The position numbers and the translations under genes were made by a program. Shown here piece by piece: positions 4,459 to 64,000 of a DNA stretch of 64,000 bases. Numbering within the stretch: position 1 is the first letter of the stretch; the number at the start of each line of letters is the position of its first letter. This stretch comes from an uncultured Thermodesulfobacteriota bacterium (GTDB taxonomy: Bacteria > Desulfobacterota > WTBG01). A model generated the notes under the pieces. That model saw nothing but the letters and a program-made list of their open reading frames with translations, did no database searches and was not told where the DNA came from. The DNA is taken from positions 2,992-66,991 of the forward strand of contig CAZOKO010000001.1 in NCBI GenBank assembly GCA_964580455.1. Reading direction: 5' to 3'.

Positions 4459-5366
4459 AAAAATATCTTATAAGTATCAATTCCTTAAGCAAGCAGGAAA
4501 TTGAAGAGCTGATTTTCTCTGCCATCAATTTGAAGGAAAAGCAGAAAGCAGGTGAACCCTACCAGCCTTTAAAAGGAAAAACACTGGGAATGCTCTTTGA
4601 GAAACCTTCTACTAGAACCCGGATTTCTTTTGAAGTAGGAATGCTGCAGCTGGGGGGTCATGCCCTCTATATGAGCTGGAGAGATACGCAACTGGGTAGA
4701 GAAGAATCTCTTGAGGATACAGCTCAAGTCCTCTCCAGATATCTAGACGCTATTGTAATCAGGACTTTCTCTCAGAATACCGTTGAGATAATTGCTCAAC
4801 ATGCAGCTATCCCTGTTATCAATGGTCTTACAGATCTGCTTCATCCCTGCCAGATATTGAGTGACATCATGACCATTGTAGAAATGAAAGGGGAATTTAA
4901 GAAACAAAAAATCTCTTATATAGGAGATGGTAATAACATTGCCAATTCCTGGATAAATGCTTCCCTCAAACTGGGATTTAACCTTCATTTAGCCTGTCCC
5001 AAAGGATATGAACCAGATGGAAAGATAGTAGAAAAGGCCCGGATTGATGCCCCATCACAGATAAAGCTCTCCTCTGACCCTTTTGAAGCTGCTAAAGATG
5101 CAGATATCATCAACACCGATACCTGGGTAAGTATGGGACAAGAAAAGGAGCATAAAGAAAGAACAGAAGTTTTTAAAAATTATCAGATAAACAGTTCCTT
5201 ACTTAAGGTGGCGAAGGAGGATGTTCTGGTTATGCACTGTTTACCTGCCCATCGAGGCGATGAGATTACTGATGAAGTAGCAGACGGCAAGCATTCAATC
5301 ATCTTTGATCAGGCTGAAAACCGCCTGCATATGCAGAAGGCTATACTCAAAATGTTACTTGCTTAA
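4455..5366 (+). CDS. argF: ornithine carbamoyltransferase
   Basis: STRTR carbamoyl-phosphate-binding motif plus the HCLPAHRG and DTWVSMGQE motifs that distinguish OTC from ATCase. It overlaps argD by 4 bp. Confidence 0.88.
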
Positions 5367-5389
5367 AAACCAAAAGGAGAAGCAGATTA

Positions 5390-6595
5390 ATGGAGAAGAT
5401 AAAAAAAGTAGTTCTGGCTTATTCTGGTGGCTTAGACACCTCAGTCATCCCCAGGTGGTTGATAGAAACCTACGGATGTGAGGTAATCGCATTCTCTGCT
5501 GATCTAGGACAGGAAGATCCATTTAAAGCACTCAAGAAAAGAGCACTCAGCATTGGTATTAAAAAAGTATATATTGAAGATCTTAAGGAAGAGTTTGCAA
5601 ACGATTTTGTTTTTCCTCTCTTAAGGGCTAACGCCATTTATGAGGGAAGCTATCTGTTAGGAACCGCCATTGCTCGGCCCCTTATTGCCAAAAAACAGAT
5701 CGAAATTGCCCGCAAAGAAAAAGCTGATGCCGTATCCCATGGGGCAACAGGCAAGGGAAATGATCAGGTCCGTTTTGAACTCACCTACCTTTCCTTAAAC
5801 CCCAGGATAAAGATTATTGCACCCTGGAGGCTCTGGCACCTCAATTCCAGACAATCTCTGATTGCCTATGCTAAAAGGCATAAGATCCCTGTAAAAGTCA
5901 GCACAAAAAAGCCTTACAGTACCGATCGCAATCTTCTCCACATAAGTTTTGAAGGAGGCATATTGGAGGATCCATGGAAAGAGCCAAGGGAAGATATGTT
6001 TGTACTCACTGCTTCCCCTGAAAAGGCTCCACAAAAACCTACCTATATTGAAGTTGCTTATGATAAAGGGAATCCCGTAGCCATCAATAATAAACTTCTT
6101 TCCCCTGCCAGGCTTTTAGCAAGGCTTAATAAGCTGGGTGGAATTAATGGTATTGGTCGTGTTGATATGGTGGAAAACCGTTATGTGGGTATGAAATCCC
6201 GCGGCGTATACGAAACGCCAGGGGGTACTATTTTACACATGGCTCATCGGGCAATGGAATCTATCACCCTTGATCGTGAGGTCATGCATCTTAAAGATAG
6301 CTTCATCACCAGATACGCAGAACTTGTTTACTATGGTTACTGGTTTTCTCCTGAAAGGGAGATTTTACAGCGAACGATTGATGAAACCCAGACAAATGTT
6401 ACTGGCACTGTTCGACTGAAGCTCTACAAAGGAAACTGCCTAGTAGTTGGTAGAAAATCCCCCAAATCTCTCTATAGTCCGGATTATGCCACATTTGAAG
6501 AAGATACGGTTTATGACCAGAGTCTGGCTGAGGGCTTCATTCAGCTCAATGCCCTGAGACTTAAAATCAGGAATTCCTTGAGGAAGAAAAGATAA
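5390..6595 (+). CDS. argG: argininosuccinate synthase
   Basis: N-type ATP pyrophosphatase motif AYSGGLDTS over a 401-aa length typical of ArgG. Confidence 0.9.
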
Positions 6596-6599
6596 GTAG

Positions 6600-6626
6600 T
6601 GCCTGAACGAAAAGTCATGTTCAGGC
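6600..6626 (+). terminator. hairpin terminator after argG (gcctgaac-N10-gttcaggc)
   Basis: Perfect 8-bp inverted repeat 5 bp after the argG stop, followed by an A/T-rich tract. Confidence 0.5.
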
Positions 6627-6840
6627 CAAATCCGAATATCTAAATCCGAAACCCGAAACAAATTCGAATATCAAATGACAAAATGACCTAAACTAAAACA
6701 TTGGTAATAAGGTGTTTTTGTCATTGGTACATTTGTATTTTGGTTATTGTTTCGTATTTCGTGCTTCGTATTTCGAATTTTTGACCGAAAAAATGGGGTT
6801 TTCGGTCAAGCACTAGTTAGGGGGAATTTTTCAGAGATTC

Positions 6841-13819: not shown

Positions 13820-13830
13820 TTTTTCCTCCT

Positions 13831-14100
13831 GATGCATGATTCATGATGCAAGATACATGGTGCAGAGGTCAGAAGTTAGCTGTCAACCCTCAATAGTCCC
13901 TCGTTATCCGGTTGCGTTGCTTCTTATTCTCAAGTTAGATTTAACTTTATTCATAACCGATTCACAAATACCGATGCGAGCTGCGTAACCTCAACCGTTT
14001 AACCTGGTCGAAACCTTATAGAGTTTTATTAACCAACTTCTTAATCCTGTATCCTGTATCCTGCATCCTGTATCCTGTATCCTGCATCTTGCATCCTGCC
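13831..14100. repeat. composite intergenic element E1: inverted tandem-heptamer arrays (GATNCAN x4 … ATCCTGY x8) flanking a ~180-bp core
   Basis: Left arm gatgcatgattcatgatgcaagatacat. The right arm is eight tandem 7-mers atcctgt/atcctgc, whose reverse complement reads GATRCAG units. The same architecture recurs at 55.3 kb and 63.0 kb. Confidence 0.7.
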
Positions 14101-14110
14101 AAAAACAGAA

Positions 14111-14914
14111 TTACTCCGGCAAAGTCAGGTCAATCACTTCACCCATTTTACCAGGATTCCCTAATGCTTTTTCATTAAAGAAAAGTTCTACTCCCCCGGC
14201 ATTCCCAACTCTGAGATTAAAATTTTCATTTGCTTTAACCCTGAATGACTCTCCAACCTTCAACAACACTTCAAAAGGTTCTCCCTGATCAAGCCGAAAT
14301 TTTATCCAGGTCTCTTCAGTTGCGAGCACCCGTAAGACCATTTGCCCAGTTTCTACTAGCTTTTGTTCTTCCACGCCATCCATTTCTCCGCTCTCACCAG
14401 ACGAATCCAACCCCTCTGCTTCTTCCGCCACCTTTTCTTCATTTTCTTCCTCTAAAGTCTCTGTTTTTATAACAGAAAGGGGTTTTACTAACTCGGTCTG
14501 TGGTTTCTGCTGACTAATTTCAAAAGGAGGGGTCTCCTTTTTTTCCTGAGGTCTTTTAAAAAACCAAAGAGCAAGTGCTAAAACAAAAATTATAAGCAAA
14601 ACTAAAATTCTGGCAGGGAACAAAACCTTTTTGGGGGGTTTTTGACTCGCGATTTCTTCCTTATCACTCTTTACCTCCAGTGCTTCCAGAGTTTCCTGAT
14701 ATCGCTTAATCACATCACTTCCTTCCAATCCTAGATAGGAAGCATAGGATTTAAGAAAGCCTTGAATGAAAACTCTAGGAGGAATGAGGTCATGCCTGTT
14801 GTTTTCAATAGCAACCAAGATAGGTTCCCTTATCCTGGTTGCTTCGGCAATTTCTGCCAGAGTAATGCTTTGAGCCTCTCTTTCACTTTTTAAATATTCA
14901 CCCAGAGTTTCCAA
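14111..14914 (-). CDS. RodZ-like helix-turn-helix membrane protein (DUF4115 C-terminus)
   Basis: N-terminal XRE-type HTH (…SITLAEIAEATRIREPILVAIEN…), a single TM segment, an acidic linker and a C-terminal β domain. Confidence 0.6.
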   Translation of the reverse strand: METLGEYLKSEREAQSITLAEIAEATRIREPILVAIENNRHDLIPPRVFIQGFLKSYASYLGLEGSDVIKRYQETLEALEVKSDKEEIASQKPPKKVLFPARILVLLIIFVLALALWFFKRPQEKKETPPFEISQQKPQTELVKPLSVIKTETLEEENEEKVAEEAEGLDSSGESGEMDGVEEQKLVETGQMVLRVLATEETWIKFRLDQGEPFEVLLKVGESFRVKANENFNLRVGNAGGVELFFNEKALGNPGKMGEVIDLTLPE

Positions 14915-34668: not shown

Positions 34669-35307
34669 TCAGGTAATTGACATGGATTTCTTAACAAGTA
34701 TAGCATTTAACAATGTTGGAAATAGAGCACAGGAATACTTACTACTCACAAGACCAAACCTCCGCATAATGCGCATAATCACAGTTGGGGCAAATATTTC
34801 CTGACGAGCGAGGTTGGCAGTGAGAGGTAACCTTTCCCCTCTGATTTTTGTGTAATAAAAGGACCTATCCTCTACTAGCTCACATTCAGGGAATAGAACT
34901 GATAAGGAAGCTGGGGTAAATCTCCAATAATCATCGGGAAATGTATGAATTTCCCAGACAAAAGGAACACTTATGAATATCACTCCTCTCTCGGCAAGGA
35001 ATCTACTAATATTCTCTGCCATCTTAAGTGGATACTTGCAATGCTCTAGGACACTAAAACAAATTACAGTCTTAAACTTTTCAATCCCCATTTTGTTTTT
35101 TATCAATTCATAATCCGAAGTAAAATCACAAACAACATCAACGCCTTTACCCGGTTCCTGATCAACCCCTATGTAGGTTTCGGTCTTAAATAATTGTCTG
35201 AAGTCATTTGCATTTCCGTACTGTTTGCTTCCTACCTCCAAAATATGCCCTTCAACCATATGACGATTCTCAATTACGAAATCTAGTTGGTTTTGGTGTC
35301 CCGACAT
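34669..35307 (-). CDS. class I SAM-dependent methyltransferase
   Basis: Motif I ILEVGSKQYGN. Start placed at the ATG forming a TAATG overlap with the wzt stop (35305–35309). The longer ORF-track start would overlap wzt by 73 bp. Confidence 0.6.
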   Translation of the reverse strand: MSGHQNQLDFVIENRHMVEGHILEVGSKQYGNANDFRQLFKTETYIGVDQEPGKGVDVVCDFTSDYELIKNKMGIEKFKTVICFSVLEHCKYPLKMAENISRFLAERGVIFISVPFVWEIHTFPDDYWRFTPASLSVLFPECELVEDRSFYYTKIRGERLPLTANLARQEIFAPTVIMRIMRRFGLVSSKYSCALFPTLLNAILVKKSMSIT

Positions 35308-36611
35308 TAGCTTAGCTCCTGTCTTTTGGTAATCCATTGTAAGAGCGGGCGAACCACTCCGGGCATCTCTCCCCCCCAATCGCCACGCGCGGAATTGCCA
35401 CTAGCATTATCCACTATCTGAAAGGCTATAACGTCTTGCTCACGTACATGCTTGACAGTCGGACTTATCGTGCTGATCCCAGCGAAAACAAACACGGTCC
35501 CTTCCGCCATGAGATTGGCGGGTATCCAGGCCATAGTGGTATAACATCCTGTGGGTCGAGGCTGTTGACGCCATTCAGGGTCTGTGTCTATGGCAGTGAA
35601 GATTACCATACCATACTGGTTGGTGAGACGAAAAACCGGTGTGAGTACGACATCAGGCTTGAGCACATTGTACCGCATTACGAGTGCAAAAGGTCGGCAA
35701 ATATCAATCGCTTCACTTACCTTTCCATCTTCGTTCTGGACGTACACAGCTCGTAATCGAACTATATCGTCACCCGGTGCATTGTTGAGTTTACGCCATT
35801 CTCGCTTTGCCACAGTACCTAGATCAGACTGAAGATAGGTAGCTACAACCTGTTGAGAAGGCCCATCTTGTATAACCTGACCCTCATTCAACAATATCGT
35901 GCGTTGACACAGTCGAGTAATAGACGGCATACTGTGAGAGACAAACAACACCGTCCGTCCGCCTACTCCGATCTCACCCATCTTCTCCAAGCATTTCTTC
36001 TGAAAGCGGATATCCCCCACTGCCAGCACTTCATCCACTAGCAATATCTCCGGCTCCAAGTGGGCTGCCACAGCAAAGGCTAGGCGCACATACATACCGC
36101 TGGAATAGTACTTCACTGGTGTGTCTACGAACTTCTCGAGCTCAGCAAAGGCCACGATCTCGTCGAACTTGCGGTCGATCTCGTCCCGTTTCATCCCCAG
36201 GATGGCGCCGCTGAGATAGACATTCTCCCGCCCGGTCAGCTCGGGGTGGAAGCCAGTGCCCACCTCCAGCAAGCTGCCCACCCTCCCGTGGATCTCAGCA
36301 CGGCCTTCGGTCGGCTCGGTGATGCGGGAGAGGATCTTGAGCAGCGTGGTCTTGCCCATCCCGTTGCGTCCAATGATGCCTACAACTTCGCCATGTTTAA
36401 CCTCGAATGAGACGTCCTTAAGTGCCCAGATGAAGTTAGTTGATGGCTGATGGCTCGTGGCTGATGGCCGATGGTCGGTTCTTCTAGCCCGACGGCGGAA
36501 AGGTGAAGAGAAGGCATTCGCTATGCTCTCCCGAAGAGTCTTATAGCCTACAAACTGACCTACACGATAAAGCTTACCTAAGTTTTCTGCTTTGATGGCG
36601 ATGTTGCTCAT
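35307..36611 (-). CDS. wzt: ABC transporter ATP-binding protein Wzt/KpsT-type with C-terminal carbohydrate-binding extension
   Basis: TagH/Wzt-type N-terminus (MSNIAIKAENLGKLYRV…), Walker A GRNGMGKTT, signature YSSGM, Walker B LLVDEVLAVGD. A ~170-aa C-terminal non-ABC extension fits the Wzt_C β-sandwich described for O-antigen terminal-cap recognition. Confidence 0.75.
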   Translation of the reverse strand: MSNIAIKAENLGKLYRVGQFVGYKTLRESIANAFSSPFRRRARRTDHRPSATSHQPSTNFIWALKDVSFEVKHGEVVGIIGRNGMGKTTLLKILSRITEPTEGRAEIHGRVGSLLEVGTGFHPELTGRENVYLSGAILGMKRDEIDRKFDEIVAFAELEKFVDTPVKYYSSGMYVRLAFAVAAHLEPEILLVDEVLAVGDIRFQKKCLEKMGEIGVGGRTVLFVSHSMPSITRLCQRTILLNEGQVIQDGPSQQVVATYLQSDLGTVAKREWRKLNNAPGDDIVRLRAVYVQNEDGKVSEAIDICRPFALVMRYNVLKPDVVLTPVFRLTNQYGMVIFTAIDTDPEWRQQPRPTGCYTTMAWIPANLMAEGTVFVFAGISTISPTVKHVREQDVIAFQIVDNASGNSARGDWGGEMPGVVRPLLQWITKRQELS

Positions 36612-37003
36612 GGATTATCCTTGATAGGAGACCGATGACCGTGGACGGGAACACCTAAAGCTTTCCGAAAAGCTTGCAATTTAACAAAAATCTCGTGCCC
36701 AAATTCCCTTATTTCCATAAGTAAATCACTGGATAAATAGTCTCGTCGTTCTATGATATCCAAACATGCTATTGTCTCCAAATAGGATCTCAAAGCCAAT
36801 CCAAGAAAACGGTTCTGCTCTGCATTGGTTTGTCCAGTTGAACCCTCTGCAATATTCAGCACGACAGAAGTTGCTGCTCGCTCTAATTGGTTCCGTAGAT
36901 TGAATCGCTCTGAGACAGGTAGCTTGCTTGAACACCCATATATTTTGTCAACATAATCCAAAGCCAAACGGTAAACATCCAGACGCTGAAACTTGTATTT
37001 CAT
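36608..37003 (-). CDS. four-helix-bundle protein (23S rRNA intervening-sequence protein/Avd-like, TIGR02436-type)
   Basis: KYKFQRLDVYRLALDY…LPVSERFNLRNQLERAATSVVLNIAEG… is typical of the family. Start set at ATG 37003, which has a GGAGGA Shine-Dalgarno 6 nt upstream. The stop overlaps the wzt start by 4 bp. Confidence 0.7.
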   Translation of the reverse strand: MKYKFQRLDVYRLALDYVDKIYGCSSKLPVSERFNLRNQLERAATSVVLNIAEGSTGQTNAEQNRFLGLALRSYLETIACLDIIERRDYLSSDLLMEIREFGHEIFVKLQAFRKALGVPVHGHRSPIKDNP

Positions 37004-37041
37004 ATATCCTCCGTTTCCAGTCTCTTGTCTCCTGTCTGCTT

Positions 37042-37899
37042 TCATATCACATCAGCAAAGGTTCTTTCACTACGTCGGAAATAAAACGCCCCTGAAATCA
37101 ATACCACTATTACAATTATAACAGAGATGGCCATCAAAGAGCCAGGCGGCGCTTTACCTAAAAGAGCCCAGCGGAAACCCTCAATTACTCCAGCCATGGG
37201 ATTAAATCCATATATTATTTGAAATTTCTCTGGCAGGAGGCTCGATGAATAAACCACTGGCGATGCAAAAAGCCATAGTTGAATTACAAATGGTATTACA
37301 TAGCGCACATCGCGATATCTTACATTTATTGCCGAGAGCCATAGGCCCACTCCTAAAGCAGTCATCAACGTTAGAAGGATAAATGCTGGCAACCAGAGTA
37401 TTTGGATAGTGGGAGGATAACCATAATAAAACATCATACCGATCAAAATAGTAAAGGCGATAGCAAAGTCAACCAGAGGGGAGAGGATACCAGAAAGGGG
37501 CATAACCAGCCTGGGGAAATATACTTTCCGAACGAGATTAGCATCCTGAACAAGGATGTTGCTTGAACGTGTTATGCCTTCAGCAAATAAGGTCCAGGGA
37601 AGCAATGCAGCATAATTAAACAGTGGATATGGGACCCCCTCTGAAGGAACTTTCGCCAGGTTGCCGAAGAATAGAGTAAATACTACCATCATAAAAAAGG
37701 GCTGGATAATTGCCCAAGCAGCACCCAGGAGTGTTTGCTTATAGCGTACTTTAATCTCCCGCCAGGTGAGAAAATACATCAGTTCGCGATAGATCCATAA
37801 ATCCCTTAAGTTTATTGGTATCCAACCCCTTGTGGGACGAATAACCACCATAGGCAATGAATTTATATTTGATTCACGCTTAAAGATATTCGCTTTCAT
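37042..37899 (-). CDS. wzm: ABC-2 type polysaccharide export permease Wzm/KpsM-like
   Basis: 285 aa with six predicted TM segments and ABC-2 family features. It lies immediately upstream of wzt. Confidence 0.75.
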   Translation of the reverse strand: MKANIFKRESNINSLPMVVIRPTRGWIPINLRDLWIYRELMYFLTWREIKVRYKQTLLGAAWAIIQPFFMMVVFTLFFGNLAKVPSEGVPYPLFNYAALLPWTLFAEGITRSSNILVQDANLVRKVYFPRLVMPLSGILSPLVDFAIAFTILIGMMFYYGYPPTIQILWLPAFILLTLMTALGVGLWLSAINVRYRDVRYVIPFVIQLWLFASPVVYSSSLLPEKFQIIYGFNPMAGVIEGFRWALLGKAPPGSLMAISVIIVIVVLISGAFYFRRSERTFADVI

Positions 37900-55296: not shown

Positions 55297-55303
55297 ATTT
55301 CAC

Positions 55304-55526
55304 TCGATACACGATTCAAGATTCACGATGCATGATTCATGATACACGATGGTATTTTATAACTGCCTCTCTAAAGTTATAGAGCTTTGCACCTAATTCT
55401 TCATATCTATGAAAAAATCTTTCGAAAATGTCTTTCTCAAGTGATTCAGTTTCATAAGCATCTCTAAATGAACTTTAGTTTCATTCCTGCATCCTGTATC
55501 CTCTATCCTGCATCCTGCTTGTATCA
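55304..55526. repeat. composite intergenic element E2: inverted tandem-heptamer arrays (GATNCAN x6 … ATCCTGY x5) flanking a ~130-bp AT-rich core
   Basis: Left arm gatacacgattcaagattcacgatgcatgattcatgatacacgatgg. Right arm attcctgcatcctgtatcctctatcctgcatcctgc. Confidence 0.7.
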
Positions 55527-61708: not shown

Positions 61709-62983
61709 ATGGGGAAAAAGAAGAAAAAAGGGGGATCCAAAGACACAACAACCAGTGTGACCACTCGGGTAAATGGAGCACCATCACCTGACAAACAGAC
61801 TGGCATTAAATATATAATCTTTTCCCTCCTCTCTATTATAATTCTTGGTATAATCATCTATTCCAATACCTTTGATGCTTCCTGGCACTTCGATGACCAC
61901 ACCGCTATTGTAGAAAATTATGGTATCAGAAACCTTAAAGGGACAATTTTTAGCGGAGGGTCAAGGTGGATAGGGTTCATTAGCTTTGCCCTCAACTACC
62001 ATTTTGGGAAGCTTGATGTGTTTGGTTATCATCTGGTCAATATCTGCATTCACCTTATAAGTGCCATTCTGGTATACTTTTTAGTGCTTTTAAGCTTCAA
62101 GACACCCTGTTTAAAAGACAACAAAATCTCCCATTATGCAGCGTCTATTTCCCTGGCTTCAGGCTTAATATTTGTAGCCCATCCCATTCAAACCCAGGCT
62201 GTAACATACATTGTTCAACGCTTCACGTCCCTGGCTACACTCTTCTACCTCCTCTCCCTGGTTCTCTTCATCAAGGCACGATTACAAAACCAGGAGGGGG
62301 GAAGTTTTTTCTCTCCTTCACACCTGGCATGCTATTTGGGCTCTCTCTTAGCTGCCTATCTTGCAATGAAAACTAAAGAGATTACTATAACCCTGCCGGT
62401 AATTATTCTGCTCTATGAATTCTCTTTTTTCAGCCCCTCCTTAAGAGCACTCGCAAGAAAGCTTCCTTATCTCATTCCATTACTGCTCACCTTTTTCATC
62501 ATTCCTTTCTCCCGCTATGGAATCGGACTGCTTGGTATATCAGGTGGTACTTTTATGGGAATAGCAGAAGTCGGTGATATCATTGGAGATGCAACCCAGG
62601 AAACTGCAACTATCTCACGAACAGATTATCTTCTAACCCAATTTAATGTCATAGTAACCTACATCCGATTACTCTTCTTCCCTGTTAATCAGAATCTTGA
62701 CTACGACTACCCCATTTCACGTACTCTCTTCGCATTTCCCACATTTTTCTCTTTCCTTTTCCTGATATCAGTTGTCATCTTTGCCGTTTGGATGTTTAAG
62801 AAGTCACGGCTAATCTCTTTTGGTATTTTCTGGTTTTTCATCACCCTATCGGTAGAGTCAAGCATTATTCCTATAAGAGATGTTATCTTTGAGCACAGGG
62901 TCTATCTTCCTTCCGTGGGTTTCGTTATATTTTTAACGGTCGCCATCTACCAGATGATGGGGCAGATAAAGACCAAACCCTAG
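61709..62983 (+). CDS. TMTC-like (DUF1736) polytopic membrane protein, TPR part encoded separately
   Basis: …FDASWHFDDHTAIVEN… DD motif in the first loop and …FVAHPIQTQAVTYIVQRFTSLATLFYLLSL… matching the conserved HP.HTEAV…R block of TMTC/DUF1736 proteins. Start chosen at ATG 61709, which has an AAAAGGAG RBS. Confidence 0.6.
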   Translation: MGKKKKKGGSKDTTTSVTTRVNGAPSPDKQTGIKYIIFSLLSIIILGIIIYSNTFDASWHFDDHTAIVENYGIRNLKGTIFSGGSRWIGFISFALNYHFGKLDVFGYHLVNICIHLISAILVYFLVLLSFKTPCLKDNKISHYAASISLASGLIFVAHPIQTQAVTYIVQRFTSLATLFYLLSLVLFIKARLQNQEGGSFFSPSHLACYLGSLLAAYLAMKTKEITITLPVIILLYEFSFFSPSLRALARKLPYLIPLLLTFFIIPFSRYGIGLLGISGGTFMGIAEVGDIIGDATQETATISRTDYLLTQFNVIVTYIRLLFFPVNQNLDYDYPISRTLFAFPTFFSFLFLISVVIFAVWMFKKSRLISFGIFWFFITLSVESSIIPIRDVIFEHRVYLPSVGFVIFLTVAIYQMMGQIKTKP

Positions 62984-63016
62984 CGAAGCTTCACCTCACC
63001 GACGAGCCTTCGCTAT

Positions 63017-63217
63017 ACTAGATACTGGATACTGGATGCAAGATACAATATGTAGGATTTCGTTCTAACAGGGTAAATATCGGTGTTTATAAATCGGTTA
63101 TGGGTACAACCAAAATTAAGAGCAACTCAACCGTGTTACGAAAGACGAAACGAGCAGCGCAACCGAATAACGAGCAACTTTTTTATCTAGGATCCAGTAT
63201 CTAGCATCCAGCATCAC
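63017..63217. repeat. composite intergenic element E3: inverted tandem-heptamer arrays (ACTGGAT… / …ATCCAGY) flanking a ~140-bp core
   Basis: Left arm gatactggatactggatgcaagataca, right arm ggatccagtatctagcatccagcatc; the two are reverse complements at the unit level. The core shares ctcaaccgtNtta and ggttgcg(c/t)tgc words with E1. Confidence 0.7.
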
Positions 63218-63310
63218 TTTGCATAAGTGTATCTTTTAAAAAAACTTGACTCATTTATTAAGTTTTCGGACTACTAATAGACAGCTAGAGGAACTGAATA
63301 GTGTGCCGAT

Positions 63311-64000
63311 ATGGTTTCGACGATAGAAAAACCTTTTCCAAACGGTTTATCCCTTTTGAAAGTTTACATATTAATTATTATACTTTTCGTTCTTACAGCT
63401 AATCATAGAAACAAGATCTGGAACCGGGAAGAAACCCTATGGCTGGATAACATCGAAAAAGCTCCCTTAAAGGCACGGCCTTACCATAGCCTGGGAGTTC
63501 ACTGCATGGATGAAGAAAATTACATCCAGGCTATTAAACATTTTAAGCATGCCCTCCAATTAGACCCTACCTACTCTTCAGCATATAATAACCTCGGCTC
63601 ATCATATAAAATGCAAGGAGCTTATCAAGAAGCAAAACAGGCTTTTAAAAAGGCACTTAAGATTAACCCTTCTTACGTCAAAGCCCTTTATAATTTGGGC
63701 AATCTCTACCACCACCGGGAATTATACAGGCAGGCAGAAGAAGCATATGAAAAAGCATTACGTATAAATCCCGGACTTCCTCAGGCACACAACAATCTGG
63801 GAAGCATCTATAATCATCATCAACAATACGATAAAGCCATATCAGCATTTAAAGAGGCGCTGTCAACAGACCCCCTCTTTGAAATGGCATATAATAATAT
63901 TGGCATTGCTTTCTATAACACAGGTCTCTACCAGGAAGCTATGAAGCACTACCAGAAAGCTATCCAGATCAATCCCAAATTCACTGATGCCTATAATAAC
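63311..64000 (+). CDS. membrane-anchored TPR protein (partial, runs off the window)
   Basis: ATG at 63311, one TM helix, then TPR units (…YNNLGSSY…YNLGNLY…). It is a paralogue of 18158–19177 and the likely TPR half of the split TMTC-like gene. Confidence 0.6.
   Translation, partial: MVSTIEKPFPNGLSLLKVYILIIILFVLTANHRNKIWNREETLWLDNIEKAPLKARPYHSLGVHCMDEENYIQAIKHFKHALQLDPTYSSAYNNLGSSYKMQGAYQEAKQAFKKALKINPSYVKALYNLGNLYHHRELYRQAEEAYEKALRINPGLPQAHNNLGSIYNHHQQYDKAISAFKEALSTDPLFEMAYNNIGIAFYNTGLYQEAMKHYQKAIQINPKFTDAYNN

Follow-up and report, generated by a model that had tools for sequence, protein, structure and literature searches.

Which kind of element is present where two runs of tandem heptamers face each other in the spacer between two genes? 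This question was raised by a stretch of 64,000 nucleotides from an uncultured Thermodesulfobacteriota bacterium (contig CAZOKO010000001.1, positions 2,992 to 66,991), which is called the window in the following. A preliminary description of the window had listed four such intergenic sites, E0 to E3, and had discussed a family of MITEs (transposable elements of miniature size with inverted repeats), a structured noncoding RNA family and a slipped-strand spacer as candidates. Its list was incomplete. A fifth site, an intact PF05635 gene with heptamer arms (36608-37042), had been overlooked. We regard E0 to E3 and this cassette at 36.6-37.0 kb as small, non-autonomous, MITE-like insertion cassettes with an architecture like that of the intervening sequences of ribosomal RNA (rRNA), whose arms pair in the operon transcript. 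Moderate confidence is placed in this reading.

Each cassette would consist of a cargo enclosed by two inverted runs of one heptamer class. The proposed cargo is an intact PF05635 gene at 36.6-37.0 kb, a decayed one in E2, a noncoding core of ~125 nt in E1 and E3, and another core in E0. The cassettes behave as discrete units, and strains that share 94-98% of their nucleotides differ in having gained, lost or replaced them. The heptamer arms move together with the unit, and the arm lengths shift by whole heptamers, consistent with replication slippage. The coordinates are collected in Table 1; contigs compared with the window are designated by L and a number.

Heptamer-armed cassettes in operon spacers

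With Tandem Repeats Finder (TRF), period-7 arrays were detected in E1 (13830-13864, 14044-14098), E2 (55305-55351, 55485-55518), E3 (63015-63037, 63184-63215) and E0 (6750-6780). A separate period-7 scan gave six arrays in the window, compared with a mean of 0.02 and a maximum of 1 in 100 dinucleotide shuffles. For the periods 5, 6, 8 and 9 the same scan gave 1, 0, 0 and 0 arrays. Inverted pairing of the arms was recorded by a repeat finder for E3 (34 nt, 79% complementary), E0 (34 nt, 71%) and E1 (24 nt, 79%). By these three approaches the facing tandem-heptamer arrays were confirmed at the four sites, including E0, for which the same architecture with a different 7-mer had been claimed. The heptamer units of the window are GGATRCA, GATACTG, AAATCCG and GAGACAG.

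E0, E1, E2 and E3 each fill the spacer of two co-directional genes. In gene sense the purine-rich arm comes first in all four, 1-30 nt past the upstream stop codon, and the downstream arm reaches the ribosome-binding site (RBS) or the start of the following gene. The cassettes measure 220-305 nt, with 85-220 nt of cargo between the arms.

Table 1 Positions of the cassettes and their parts in the window (TIR, terminal inverted repeat)
Feature	Position	Strand	Remarks
E0, complete dispersed element	6597..6815	+	219 nt; argG stop 6593-6595 upstream, fn3 gene start 6841 downstream
E0 left TIR, TAGTGCCTGAAC	6597..6608	+	outer strand of hairpin 6601-6626
E0 5' heptamer arm, AAATCCG class	6628..6662	+	inverted-repeat pair
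E0 3' heptamer arm, TTTCGTA class	6747..6781	+	reverse complement of 5' arm; TRF 6750-6780; 71% complementary
E0 right TIR, GGTCAAGCACTA	6804..6815	+	outer strand of hairpin 6781-6809
E1 5' arm (gene sense)	14044..14100	-	8 RCAGGAT units; TRF 7.9 copies, 89% matches
E1 core	13867..14043	-	conserved E1/E3 block 13894-14018 (nhmmer match 14018-13894)
E1 3' arm, ATCNTGM units	13830..13866	-	abuts pfkB RBS GGAGG, 13825-13829
PF05635 cassette 5' arm, GACAGGA GACAAGA GACTGGA	37010..37042	-	TRF 37016-37037; runs into RBS
Intact PF05635 gene (23S_rRNA_IVP, Avd-like four-helix bundle)	36608..37003	-	Pfam E=1.2e-24
PF05635 cassette 3' arm, three GGTCNNC units	36611..36650	-	encodes C-terminal tail ...PVHGHRSPIKDNP
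E2 5' arm (gene sense), RCAGGAT units	55485..55520	-	3 nt past cupin gene stop (55524-55526)
E2 core, putative decayed PF05635 gene remnant	55352..55484	-	profile comparison, ortholog L135
E2 3' arm, ATCNTGN units	55302..55351	-	5-8 nt before GT2 start codon (55296)
E3, complete 305-nt insertion	62981..63285	+	empty site in L154
E3 5' heptamer arm, GATACTG class	63015..63048	+	TRF; 79% complementary pair
E3 conserved core, homologous to that of E1	63063..63155	+	two GCARCNCAACCGNNTNACGA copies
E3 3' heptamer arm, ATCCAGY class	63181..63215	+	TRF; inverted pair
E3 end sequences, TAGCGAAGC...GACAGC			

For E3 the insertion itself is documented. The site is empty in L154, which at ~98% identity was the nearest relative found (...AAACCC^CAGAGGAAC...; flanks 97.8% and 99.3% identical), and the window reads ...AAACCC[305 nt]TAGAGGAAC.... 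The 305-nt block holds a 5' hairpin, both arms, the core and a 3' tail. Since both arms lie inside the inserted segment, they belong to the moved unit. E3 landed 9 nt ahead of a pre-existing stop codon, and its first three bases (TAG) are now the stop codon of the open reading frame (ORF) 61709-62983. CTAG is found at both junctions (62980-62983 and 63285-63288). The extreme ends are limited to TAGC...GCTA, plus the subterminal heptamer arms.

The ORFs on both sides of E3 (61709-62983 and 63311-64000) code for a PMT-like membrane domain and a domain of one transmembrane segment plus TPR. In the clade they are neighbouring ORFs that share one frame, with a gap of 13-58 nt in relatives. Distant homologs (31-48% identical) show no break at the E3 junction and combine both domains in one protein of ~420-550 aa. 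E3 was considered as the splitter of this gene and was rejected for that role, because the two ORFs are already separate in the nearest relatives without E3. Thus, the split is older than the insertion.

E0 begins 1 nt past the argG stop codon. Its 12-nt TIRs, TAGTGCCTGAAC and GGTCAAGCACTA, are complementary at 10/12 positions, and the element matched its own reverse orientation with nhmmer (E=1.6e-9). A second copy with the same ends and 91% identity was found after an unrelated gene (L144:2465-2704). The homology starts with TAGTG(C/T)CTGAAC and finishes with GGTC(A/G)AGCACTA, and these two sequences form an inverted repeat. The TA at each end of both copies could be a target site duplication or equally a part of the TIR. 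E0 is missing in L141 (96% identical), where an unrelated hairpin-rich segment of 105 nt stands instead. A larger E0-type element occupies the same site in the ~84% identical relatives L136-L140. Between L136/L140 and L137, which have identical ArgG, this element differs by 14 nt, that is two heptamers. Furthermore, a segment of 132 nt whose ends are TIR-like (CCTGCCCTGG...CTGGGCCAGGG) is inserted in one heptamer arm in L137:4200-4643 and is missing in L139:4200-4511, again with identical ArgG. This insertion is a different small mobile element that targets the heptamer array.

No match to E3 or E0 was obtained in plasmids, nor to a word of the E0 core in viral contigs. A weak nhmmer match to the E0 5' arm and core (E=6e-6) adjoins a GGATGCA array in the metagenome-assembled genome (MAG) of a 'delta proteobacterium' (L024:1570-1636) and may be a further family member. 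Upstream of argG, the argF-argG spacer was 23 nt long in the window (5366-5390) and ~200 nt in the ~84% identical relatives (L136:2796-3001). The additional length is due to a palindromic element (CACCGCAGAGACCGC...GCGATCTCTGTGGTG) with a TTGCTTA-type direct repeat on both sides, and a length difference of 9 nt was seen between contigs.

The 5' arm of E1 begins 10 nt past the stop codon (14111-14113) of a RodZ-like gene. It has eight units in the window and in five contigs of other samples, in all of which E1 is identical. No copy-number variation was thus found inside the source population across these five contigs, and differences were seen only between strains. In L126, L127 and L128 (97-98% identical) the arm has 5-7 units, and the core differs by four substitutions only. 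E1 is absent from L130 and L131 (94-97% identical), whose spacer of 89 nt retains only GATTCTAGATGCTGGAT, three heptamers of the 5'-arm type. In the orthologous rodZ-pfkB spacer of L145, a relative with 78-86% identity in the flanking genes, the core is ~90% identical and little is left of the arms. E1 and E0 occur in relatives of only ~80-86% identity, yet both are missing from some strains of 94-97% identity. Because of the distant relatives, both have probably long been present at their sites, with loss or replacement in some of the close strains.

E1 had been described as abutting the pfkB start codon. It adjoins the RBS GGAGG (13825-13829; GGAGG-N5-ATG) instead, and the likely start is 13819, not 13837. 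The 305-aa pfkB call of JGI, which starts at 13837, is an overlong gene call, a read-through artefact of the flanking array. A short-read contig (L002:1-52) terminates within the E1 5' arm. In assemblies broken at arrays, the heptamer copy numbers of short-read MAGs may be collapsed.

The E1 and E3 cores had been reported to share words in opposite orientation. Their likeness exceeds this, as the reverse-complemented E1 core and the E3 core align over ~95-125 nt. The blocks ATCGGTRTTTRTRAATCGGTTATG and GCARCNCAACCGNNTNACGA are common to both, the latter twice in E3. Within the window they match E1 and E3 alone, with a chance expectation of zero. A scan of public metagenome contigs with ATCGGTRTTTRTRAATCGGTTATG gave five further genuine copies (L144-L148), three of them in new gene contexts (L144, L146, L147) and one diverged and without arms (L148). 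At least five distinct sites with this core are known, two in the window and the others in metagenomic contigs of relatives. Dispersed copies of the E0 and E1/E3 cores at other loci show 84-93% identity. All copies with flanking genes inspected (E1, E3, L144, L146, L147) are sense-oriented and extend from the upstream stop to the next start. The copies of the E1/E3 family are mosaic and combine 5' hairpin, arms, core and 3' tail differently. Judging by these mosaic copies and the replacement of whole spacers, recombination at the arrays seems to contribute to cassette movement; the arrays appear to act as landing or recombination sites for module exchange. A coding E1/E3 core was rejected, since the ORFs from the conserved ATG lie in different frames in E1, E3 and L144. 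The cores of E1, E3 and E0 were also examined as PF05635 remnants; with a locally built, iterated profile no signal was obtained.

Of the candidates discussed before, the MITE family is largely supported, by the E3 insertion, the TIRs and second copy of E0 and the E1/E3 core at no fewer than five sites. On the other side, a parent transposase was not found and the target site duplication (TSD) is ambiguous. The proviso that the arrays might be incidental low-complexity DNA did not hold for elements that are discrete cassettes, as seen from the whole-unit insertion of E3 and the dispersed E0 and E1/E3 cores. In a wider form, this alternative takes all structures as neutral by-products: arrays born from slippage with a 7-nt bias, inverted pairs from template switching and cores left over from spacers or pseudogenes, with neither function nor dedicated mobility. 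The elements are dispensable in strains of 94-97% identity, the heptamer copy number drifts, the cargo of E2 is a presumed decayed gene, and promoter, terminator or Rfam signals are lacking. Polymerase slippage has been named as the source of the over-representation of heptamers (Mrazek 2007, as cited in PMC4692102). We nevertheless consider neutral origin rather unlikely. E3 came as a single 305-nt unit including both arms, the E0 and E1/E3 cores recur at other loci, the E1 core is better conserved than its flanking genes, and the inspected copies all fill the space between stop codon and RBS in sense orientation.

PF05635 genes between heptamer arms

E2 fills the 227-nt spacer between a cupin (FdtA-like) gene and a GT2 gene. 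It had been placed in the promoter of the GT2 gene, which was not supported: the spacer lies within one gene cluster, and the promoter consensus is not above chance. In L135 (flanks 89.7% identical) arms of the E2 type enclose an ORF of 61 codons, the first half of which corresponds to the N-terminus of PF05635 (35 bits, locally built profile). The E2 core of the window matched profile positions 89-119, the C-terminal helix, weakly (7 bits). It has the 3' half in common with L135 (...YEELGxKLYNFREAV...), and its 3' arm is one unit longer. Judged mainly by the ortholog L135, the E2 core is a decayed remnant of an Avd-like PF05635 gene.

The intact gene of the fifth cassette was matched by the Pfam model PF05635 at 36608-37045(-) with 87 bits, compared with a gathering cut-off of 33.8. 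The gene has wzm (37042-37899) on one side and wzt (35307-36611) on the other, and an ATGA overlap is present at each end. The nearest solved structure to its protein is PDB 2gsc (E=8e-13). The arms of this cassette pair in the minimum free energy (MFE) fold.

The position of the gene is recurrent. In the window (36608-37899) and in two unrelated contigs (L151:884-4422, L152:206-2187), a PF05635 gene was found either enclosed by wzm and wzt or immediately upstream of wzt. Homologs of the gene are 62-85% identical, from sources named Bipolaricaulota, Zixibacteria, Thermodesulfobacteriota and Deltaproteobacteria. The insertion site may thus be conserved, or the wzm-IVP-wzt block may have spread horizontally as a whole. 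Wzt itself contains (TGATGGC)x4 in frame in its ATPase N-terminal region (36441-36474 of 35307-36611, minus strand), which encodes ...RRTDHRPSATSHQPST... just before the Walker A region.

Heptamer arrays were also found beside PF05635 genes of many other lineages. Among the best 120 homologs of the window protein, C-terminal tails of the 'SPV/SSV' kind are present in 62/120 and N-terminal tails in 21/120. Many of them read ...TEDGRQKTGD... or ...SPVSGPRSSV..., as expected of translated purine- or pyrimidine-rich heptamer arrays. At the DNA of two of these loci (L151, L152), again between wzm and wzt, (AGACRGR)n precedes the PF05635 gene, and (AGACRGR)n followed by (GGTCTCC)n stands at its 3' side. 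Ten PF05635 matches in loci with GGATRCA arrays were nearer to the arrays than randomly placed (median 196 nt, permutation p=0.011). For the cultured Xanthomonas campestris, a 4-unit GGGAATC array over the annotated start of XCC0516, 6 nt from bccP, is contained in a published repeat table (PMC4692102). XCC0516 is the protein of PDB 2gsc, hence the same arrangement of array and intervening-sequence protein (IVP), on which PMC4692102 is silent. In the literature searched, no published statement linking heptamer arrays to PF05635 genes was found. Tails with TEDGRQKTGD or SPVSGPRSSV further indicate that many PF05635 gene calls in databases are 20-70 aa too long, as the ORF reads through the flanking arrays.

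The distribution of the E1/E2 unit is wide. At least 120 stretches with three successive GGATRCA units were detected in species-representative genomes, which belong to more than 15 phyla. The hosts include Bacteroidota, Chloroflexota, Acidobacteriota, Verrucomicrobiota, Planctomycetota, Desulfobacterota and Nitrospirota, as well as Gallionella, a Calothrix and Methanophagales archaea. In these loci 271 period-7 arrays were counted, with at most 43 at any other period from 4 to 12, and many further heptamer units occur. An inverted partner lies within 600 nt for 105 of 308 arrays, mostly 11-100 nt off. Convergent spacers modestly exceed divergent ones (15 vs 5), based on crude ORF calls with half of the arrays inside them.

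A bolder reading takes the heptamer-armed cassettes of all phyla as one class of mobile 'mRNA intervening sequences', in which the autonomous form carries the PF05635 gene and the noncoding E0 and E1/E3 elements are derivatives. The PF05635 protein might then help the cassettes to spread or to persist, perhaps through binding of the repeat hairpin or together with a reverse transcriptase, either of the host or a distant one. If true, the 'four helix bundle / 23S rRNA IVS proteins', an orphan family of very large size, would gain a function, and the over-representation of 7-nt repeats in many bacterial genomes would be explained. This extension is speculative, and we give it little credence.

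Predicted arm pairing in the operon transcript

In the predicted RNA folds the arms of E0 to E3 are joined in stems of ~23-30 bp, with z-scores of -4.8 (E1), -4.3 (E2), -3.1 (E3) and -3.5 (E0). The downstream RBS stays free in these folds; in the MFE fold of E1 the pfkB RBS lies unpaired at the stem base. We infer co-transcription of the cassettes with the operons around them. Within such a polycistronic transcript, pairing of the arms would give an imperfect stem of 23-30 bp with the cargo looped out. Such a stem would keep the upstream stop codon beside the next RBS. It would be a plausible RNase III substrate, by analogy with rRNA intervening sequences and the hmw hairpin, and arm length could tune processing and expression of the downstream gene. 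In view of these two precedents we consider this the most economical interpretation.

In consensus scans of the four elements, sigma-70-like promoters and intrinsic terminators never exceeded the level expected from shuffles. The Rfam 15 covariance models gave zero matches at the gathering threshold in the whole window, and hence no rRNA either. The slipped-strand variation proposed before was recovered between strains, with 8 vs 5-7 units in E1, one unit in E2 and two units in the E0-type element. A phase switch of promoter spacing is unsupported, because the arrays stand in intercistronic spacers without promoter consensus.

If the length of the arms matters, the elements could be expression tuners of the hmw type: hairpins processed by RNase III, in which slippage sets the level of pfkB or GT2, forming a contingency locus with incidental mobility. 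This would agree with the finding that strains differ by whole heptamers in the arm next to the upstream gene, with 3' arms that reach the RBS or start codon, and with a heptamer precedent (PMC12721329). Variation within the population was not seen, however, as E1 is identical in five contigs of different samples. The downstream genes are housekeeping or biosynthetic genes, not surface antigens, and the PF05635 cassette has the same architecture without downstream-target logic. We therefore hold this explanation to be distinctly unlikely.

Iterated binding sites for an RNA-binding regulator of the next gene's translation (CsrA; alternatively cold-shock protein or S1) were considered as well. 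The E1/E2 unit CAGGAUG, which we take to be the CsrB repeat consensus, holds the GGA core of CsrA sites, and seven GGA motifs are present within the 55-nt E1 5' arm. The unit recurs in many phyla, and Csp, S1 and CsrA were discussed as candidates for TAACTGA arrays (PMC4679880). In contrast, other elements of the window are built of AAATCCG, GAGACAG and GATACTG, which are unrelated to this unit, the stem would hide the binding sites, and the GGATRCA arrays elsewhere have no strand preference relative to genes. A role as protein-binding arrays is thus very unlikely.

The cores had also been suggested to form a structured RNA family, which was not substantiated. Within the E1/E3 core, ATCGGT-N7-AATCGGTTATG and ACGA..GAC are invariant. 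Conservation of ~90% at the orthologous site with flanks of ~78-86%, the sense orientation of the inspected copies and these invariant blocks would fit a cis-regulatory or small RNA, to which the arms are mere insulation. RNAalifold on eight core copies gave only -6.55 kcal/mol, and double changes of any kind were present in 3 of 13 pairs. A possible 6-bp stem CGGTTG/CAACCG is invariant and hence uninformative for covariation. At four loci with the core, zero Rfam matches were obtained at E<=1. The conserved blocks are direct repeats, suggesting a site at protein or DNA level rather than helices. A structured core is, in our judgement, highly improbable.

Several results speak against the cassette reading favoured here. 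No transposase or mobility gene was linked to any element, although the genome and metagenome scans used other patterns. For E3, the empty site of L154 is CCAG and the junctions are CTAG, so that the TSD is ambiguous. E1 and E0 lack a clean empty site; since their spacers are replaced wholesale in relatives, deletion or recombinational cassette exchange is as likely as transposition. The family is not uniform: L144 is devoid of the 5' hairpin and 3' tail of E3, L146 of the 3' half, and L145 and L148 are nearly armless. We infer the RNA-level steps, pairing in the transcript and RNase III cleavage, from predicted folds and analogy. The fold stability of the whole PF05635 cassette does not significantly exceed that of shuffles (z=-1.7). 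Between E1, E2 and E3 the arms are nearly as complementary to those of another element as to their own partners (17-20/21). Strong arm covariation between elements was therefore rejected, and covariation support for the stem is weak except for E0. Elsewhere, GGATRCA arrays between co-directional genes had no strand preference (19 sense, 16 antisense; crude ORF calls). Finally, the link of PF05635 to arrays is built on ten matches, one homolog subfamily and one Xanthomonas gene.

Comparison with known repeats and intervening sequences

Heptamers have been known since 2007 as the over-represented class of long simple sequence repeats (SSRs) in bacteria, without an accepted role, and the PF05635 'four helix bundle' proteins are among the large orphan families of bacterial genomes. 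The window ties both together. The filled and empty sites demonstrate that heptamer arrays can be arms of discrete cassettes inserting within operons, by predicted arm pairing without separating the stop codon from the next RBS. If the RNase III-hairpin mechanism is true, this would be a widespread way of harmless DNA insertion into operons, perhaps with slippage tuning of the downstream gene. In practice, the arrays break short-read assemblies and inflate gene calls, such as the PF05635 tails and the 305-aa pfkB. The cassettes are best grouped with the known MITE-like hairpin elements and heptamer SSRs; the association with Avd-like PF05635 cassettes is possibly new.

In heterocystous cyanobacteria, the short tandemly repeated repetitive (STRR) sequences have the units CCCCAGT, TTGGTCA and CAACAGT. 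The units of the window differ from these, as does its Desulfobacterota host, whose proteins cluster at 90% identity with proteins named 'Deltaproteobacteria bacterium'. Repetitive extragenic palindromic (REP) sequences and the related BIME and REPIN are imperfect palindromes of ~20-40 nt with one consensus, frequently clustered and associated with a RAYT transposase. The arms here are of several heptamer classes and surround 85-220 nt of cargo. No REP-like consensus recurred within the window according to the repeat finder; no search aimed at RAYT was made. The preliminary description had called such terminal repeats unusual, with an exact fit neither to REP/BIME nor to STRR. The distinction from STRR and REP/BIME stood, but the word unusual was too strong, since both the over-representation of heptamer SSRs and their convergent inverted pairs are published for Xanthomonas. 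Among the GGGAATC arrays of Xanthomonas, 70/186 sites are convergent inverted pairs that are capable of forming stem-loops and are mostly transcribed (Rehm et al. 2015, PMC4692102). TAACTGA arrays occur next to start codons in Beggiatoaceae, cyanobacteria and Bacteroidetes (MacGregor 2015, PMC4679880), and regulatory effects are described in the literature for heptamer arrays of Nostoc. Like the Xanthomonas GGGAATC, STRR/GGGGAYT and TAACTGA arrays, those of the window consist of tandem 7-nt units, are mostly intergenic and near stop or start codons, and vary in length between relatives. Unlike them, they form the arms of cassettes that are discrete, measure 220-305 nt and have conserved cores and terminal repeats; for one cassette the insertion is documented. 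The arrays here are also composed of other units, in a Desulfobacterota MAG. The link to PF05635 was made here and not in PMC4692102 or PMC4679880.

With bacterial MITEs the elements share small size, noncoding sequence, TIRs in the case of E0, multiple copies, intergenic position and insertion polymorphism between strains. Correia elements of Neisseria and cyanobacterial Nezha are MITEs with long hairpin folds, and neighbouring genes are transcribed together with them. E0 (219 nt), E3 (305 nt) and the spacers of E1 (291 nt) and E2 (227 nt) are of MITE size, with no transposase gene inside. Multiple copies were found for the E1/E3 core (five sites or more) and for E0 (two contexts), mostly in metagenomic contigs of relatives. 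Insertion polymorphism was present for E3 (filled, empty in L154) and for the 132-nt insertion of L137 (empty in L139). The TIRs are clear in E0 (10/12) and reduced to TAGC...GCTA in E3, and the ends of E1 and E2 are undefined. BrickBuilt of P. gingivalis is a MITE containing a 23-nt minisatellite (PMC4596501) and thus, like the elements here, has an internal tandem repeat of variable length. Unlike in Correia, Nezha and BrickBuilt, the long inverted repeat of our cassettes is built of tandem heptamers, and some of them carry a small gene. Furthermore, the TSD candidates are CTAG, TAG or possibly TA, and a cognate transposase was not identified.

In sequence and structure, PF05635 proteins are similar to Avd, which diversity-generating retroelements have as an accessory protein (PMC10053308). 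The heptamer arms differ from the pairs of template and variable repeats in these systems; a reverse transcriptase or such repeats were not seen beside the cassettes, although no search was aimed at them.

A close parallel for the arms is the (ATCTTTC)n hairpin in the 5' untranslated region of H. influenzae hmw1A. There the repeat number determines expression and shifts by slippage; cleavage by RNase III increases HMW1A expression, and without it the repeat number does not change (Rapun-Araiz et al. 2025, PMC12721329). In both cases a heptamer array is one arm of a long hairpin, here a predicted one, just upstream of a gene. In hmw1A the right arm is a G-rich region at a single locus with a proven phase-variable adhesin; here it is a second array, in dispersed cassettes.

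For the whole architecture, the rRNA intervening sequences are comparable. Their stems are cut by RNase III without religation, and some of them carry PF05635 ORFs (PMC11270868). The cassettes resemble the intervening sequences of 23S rRNA in the flanking inverted-repeat stem, the PF05635 ORF in the loop and the sporadic, apparently horizontal distribution. In contrast to these, which are inserted in a helix of 23S (or 16S) rRNA, all elements lie between or next to protein-coding genes, in the mRNA spacers of operons such as wzm-wzt and cupin-GT2; their stems are built of heptamers, and their processing is predicted.

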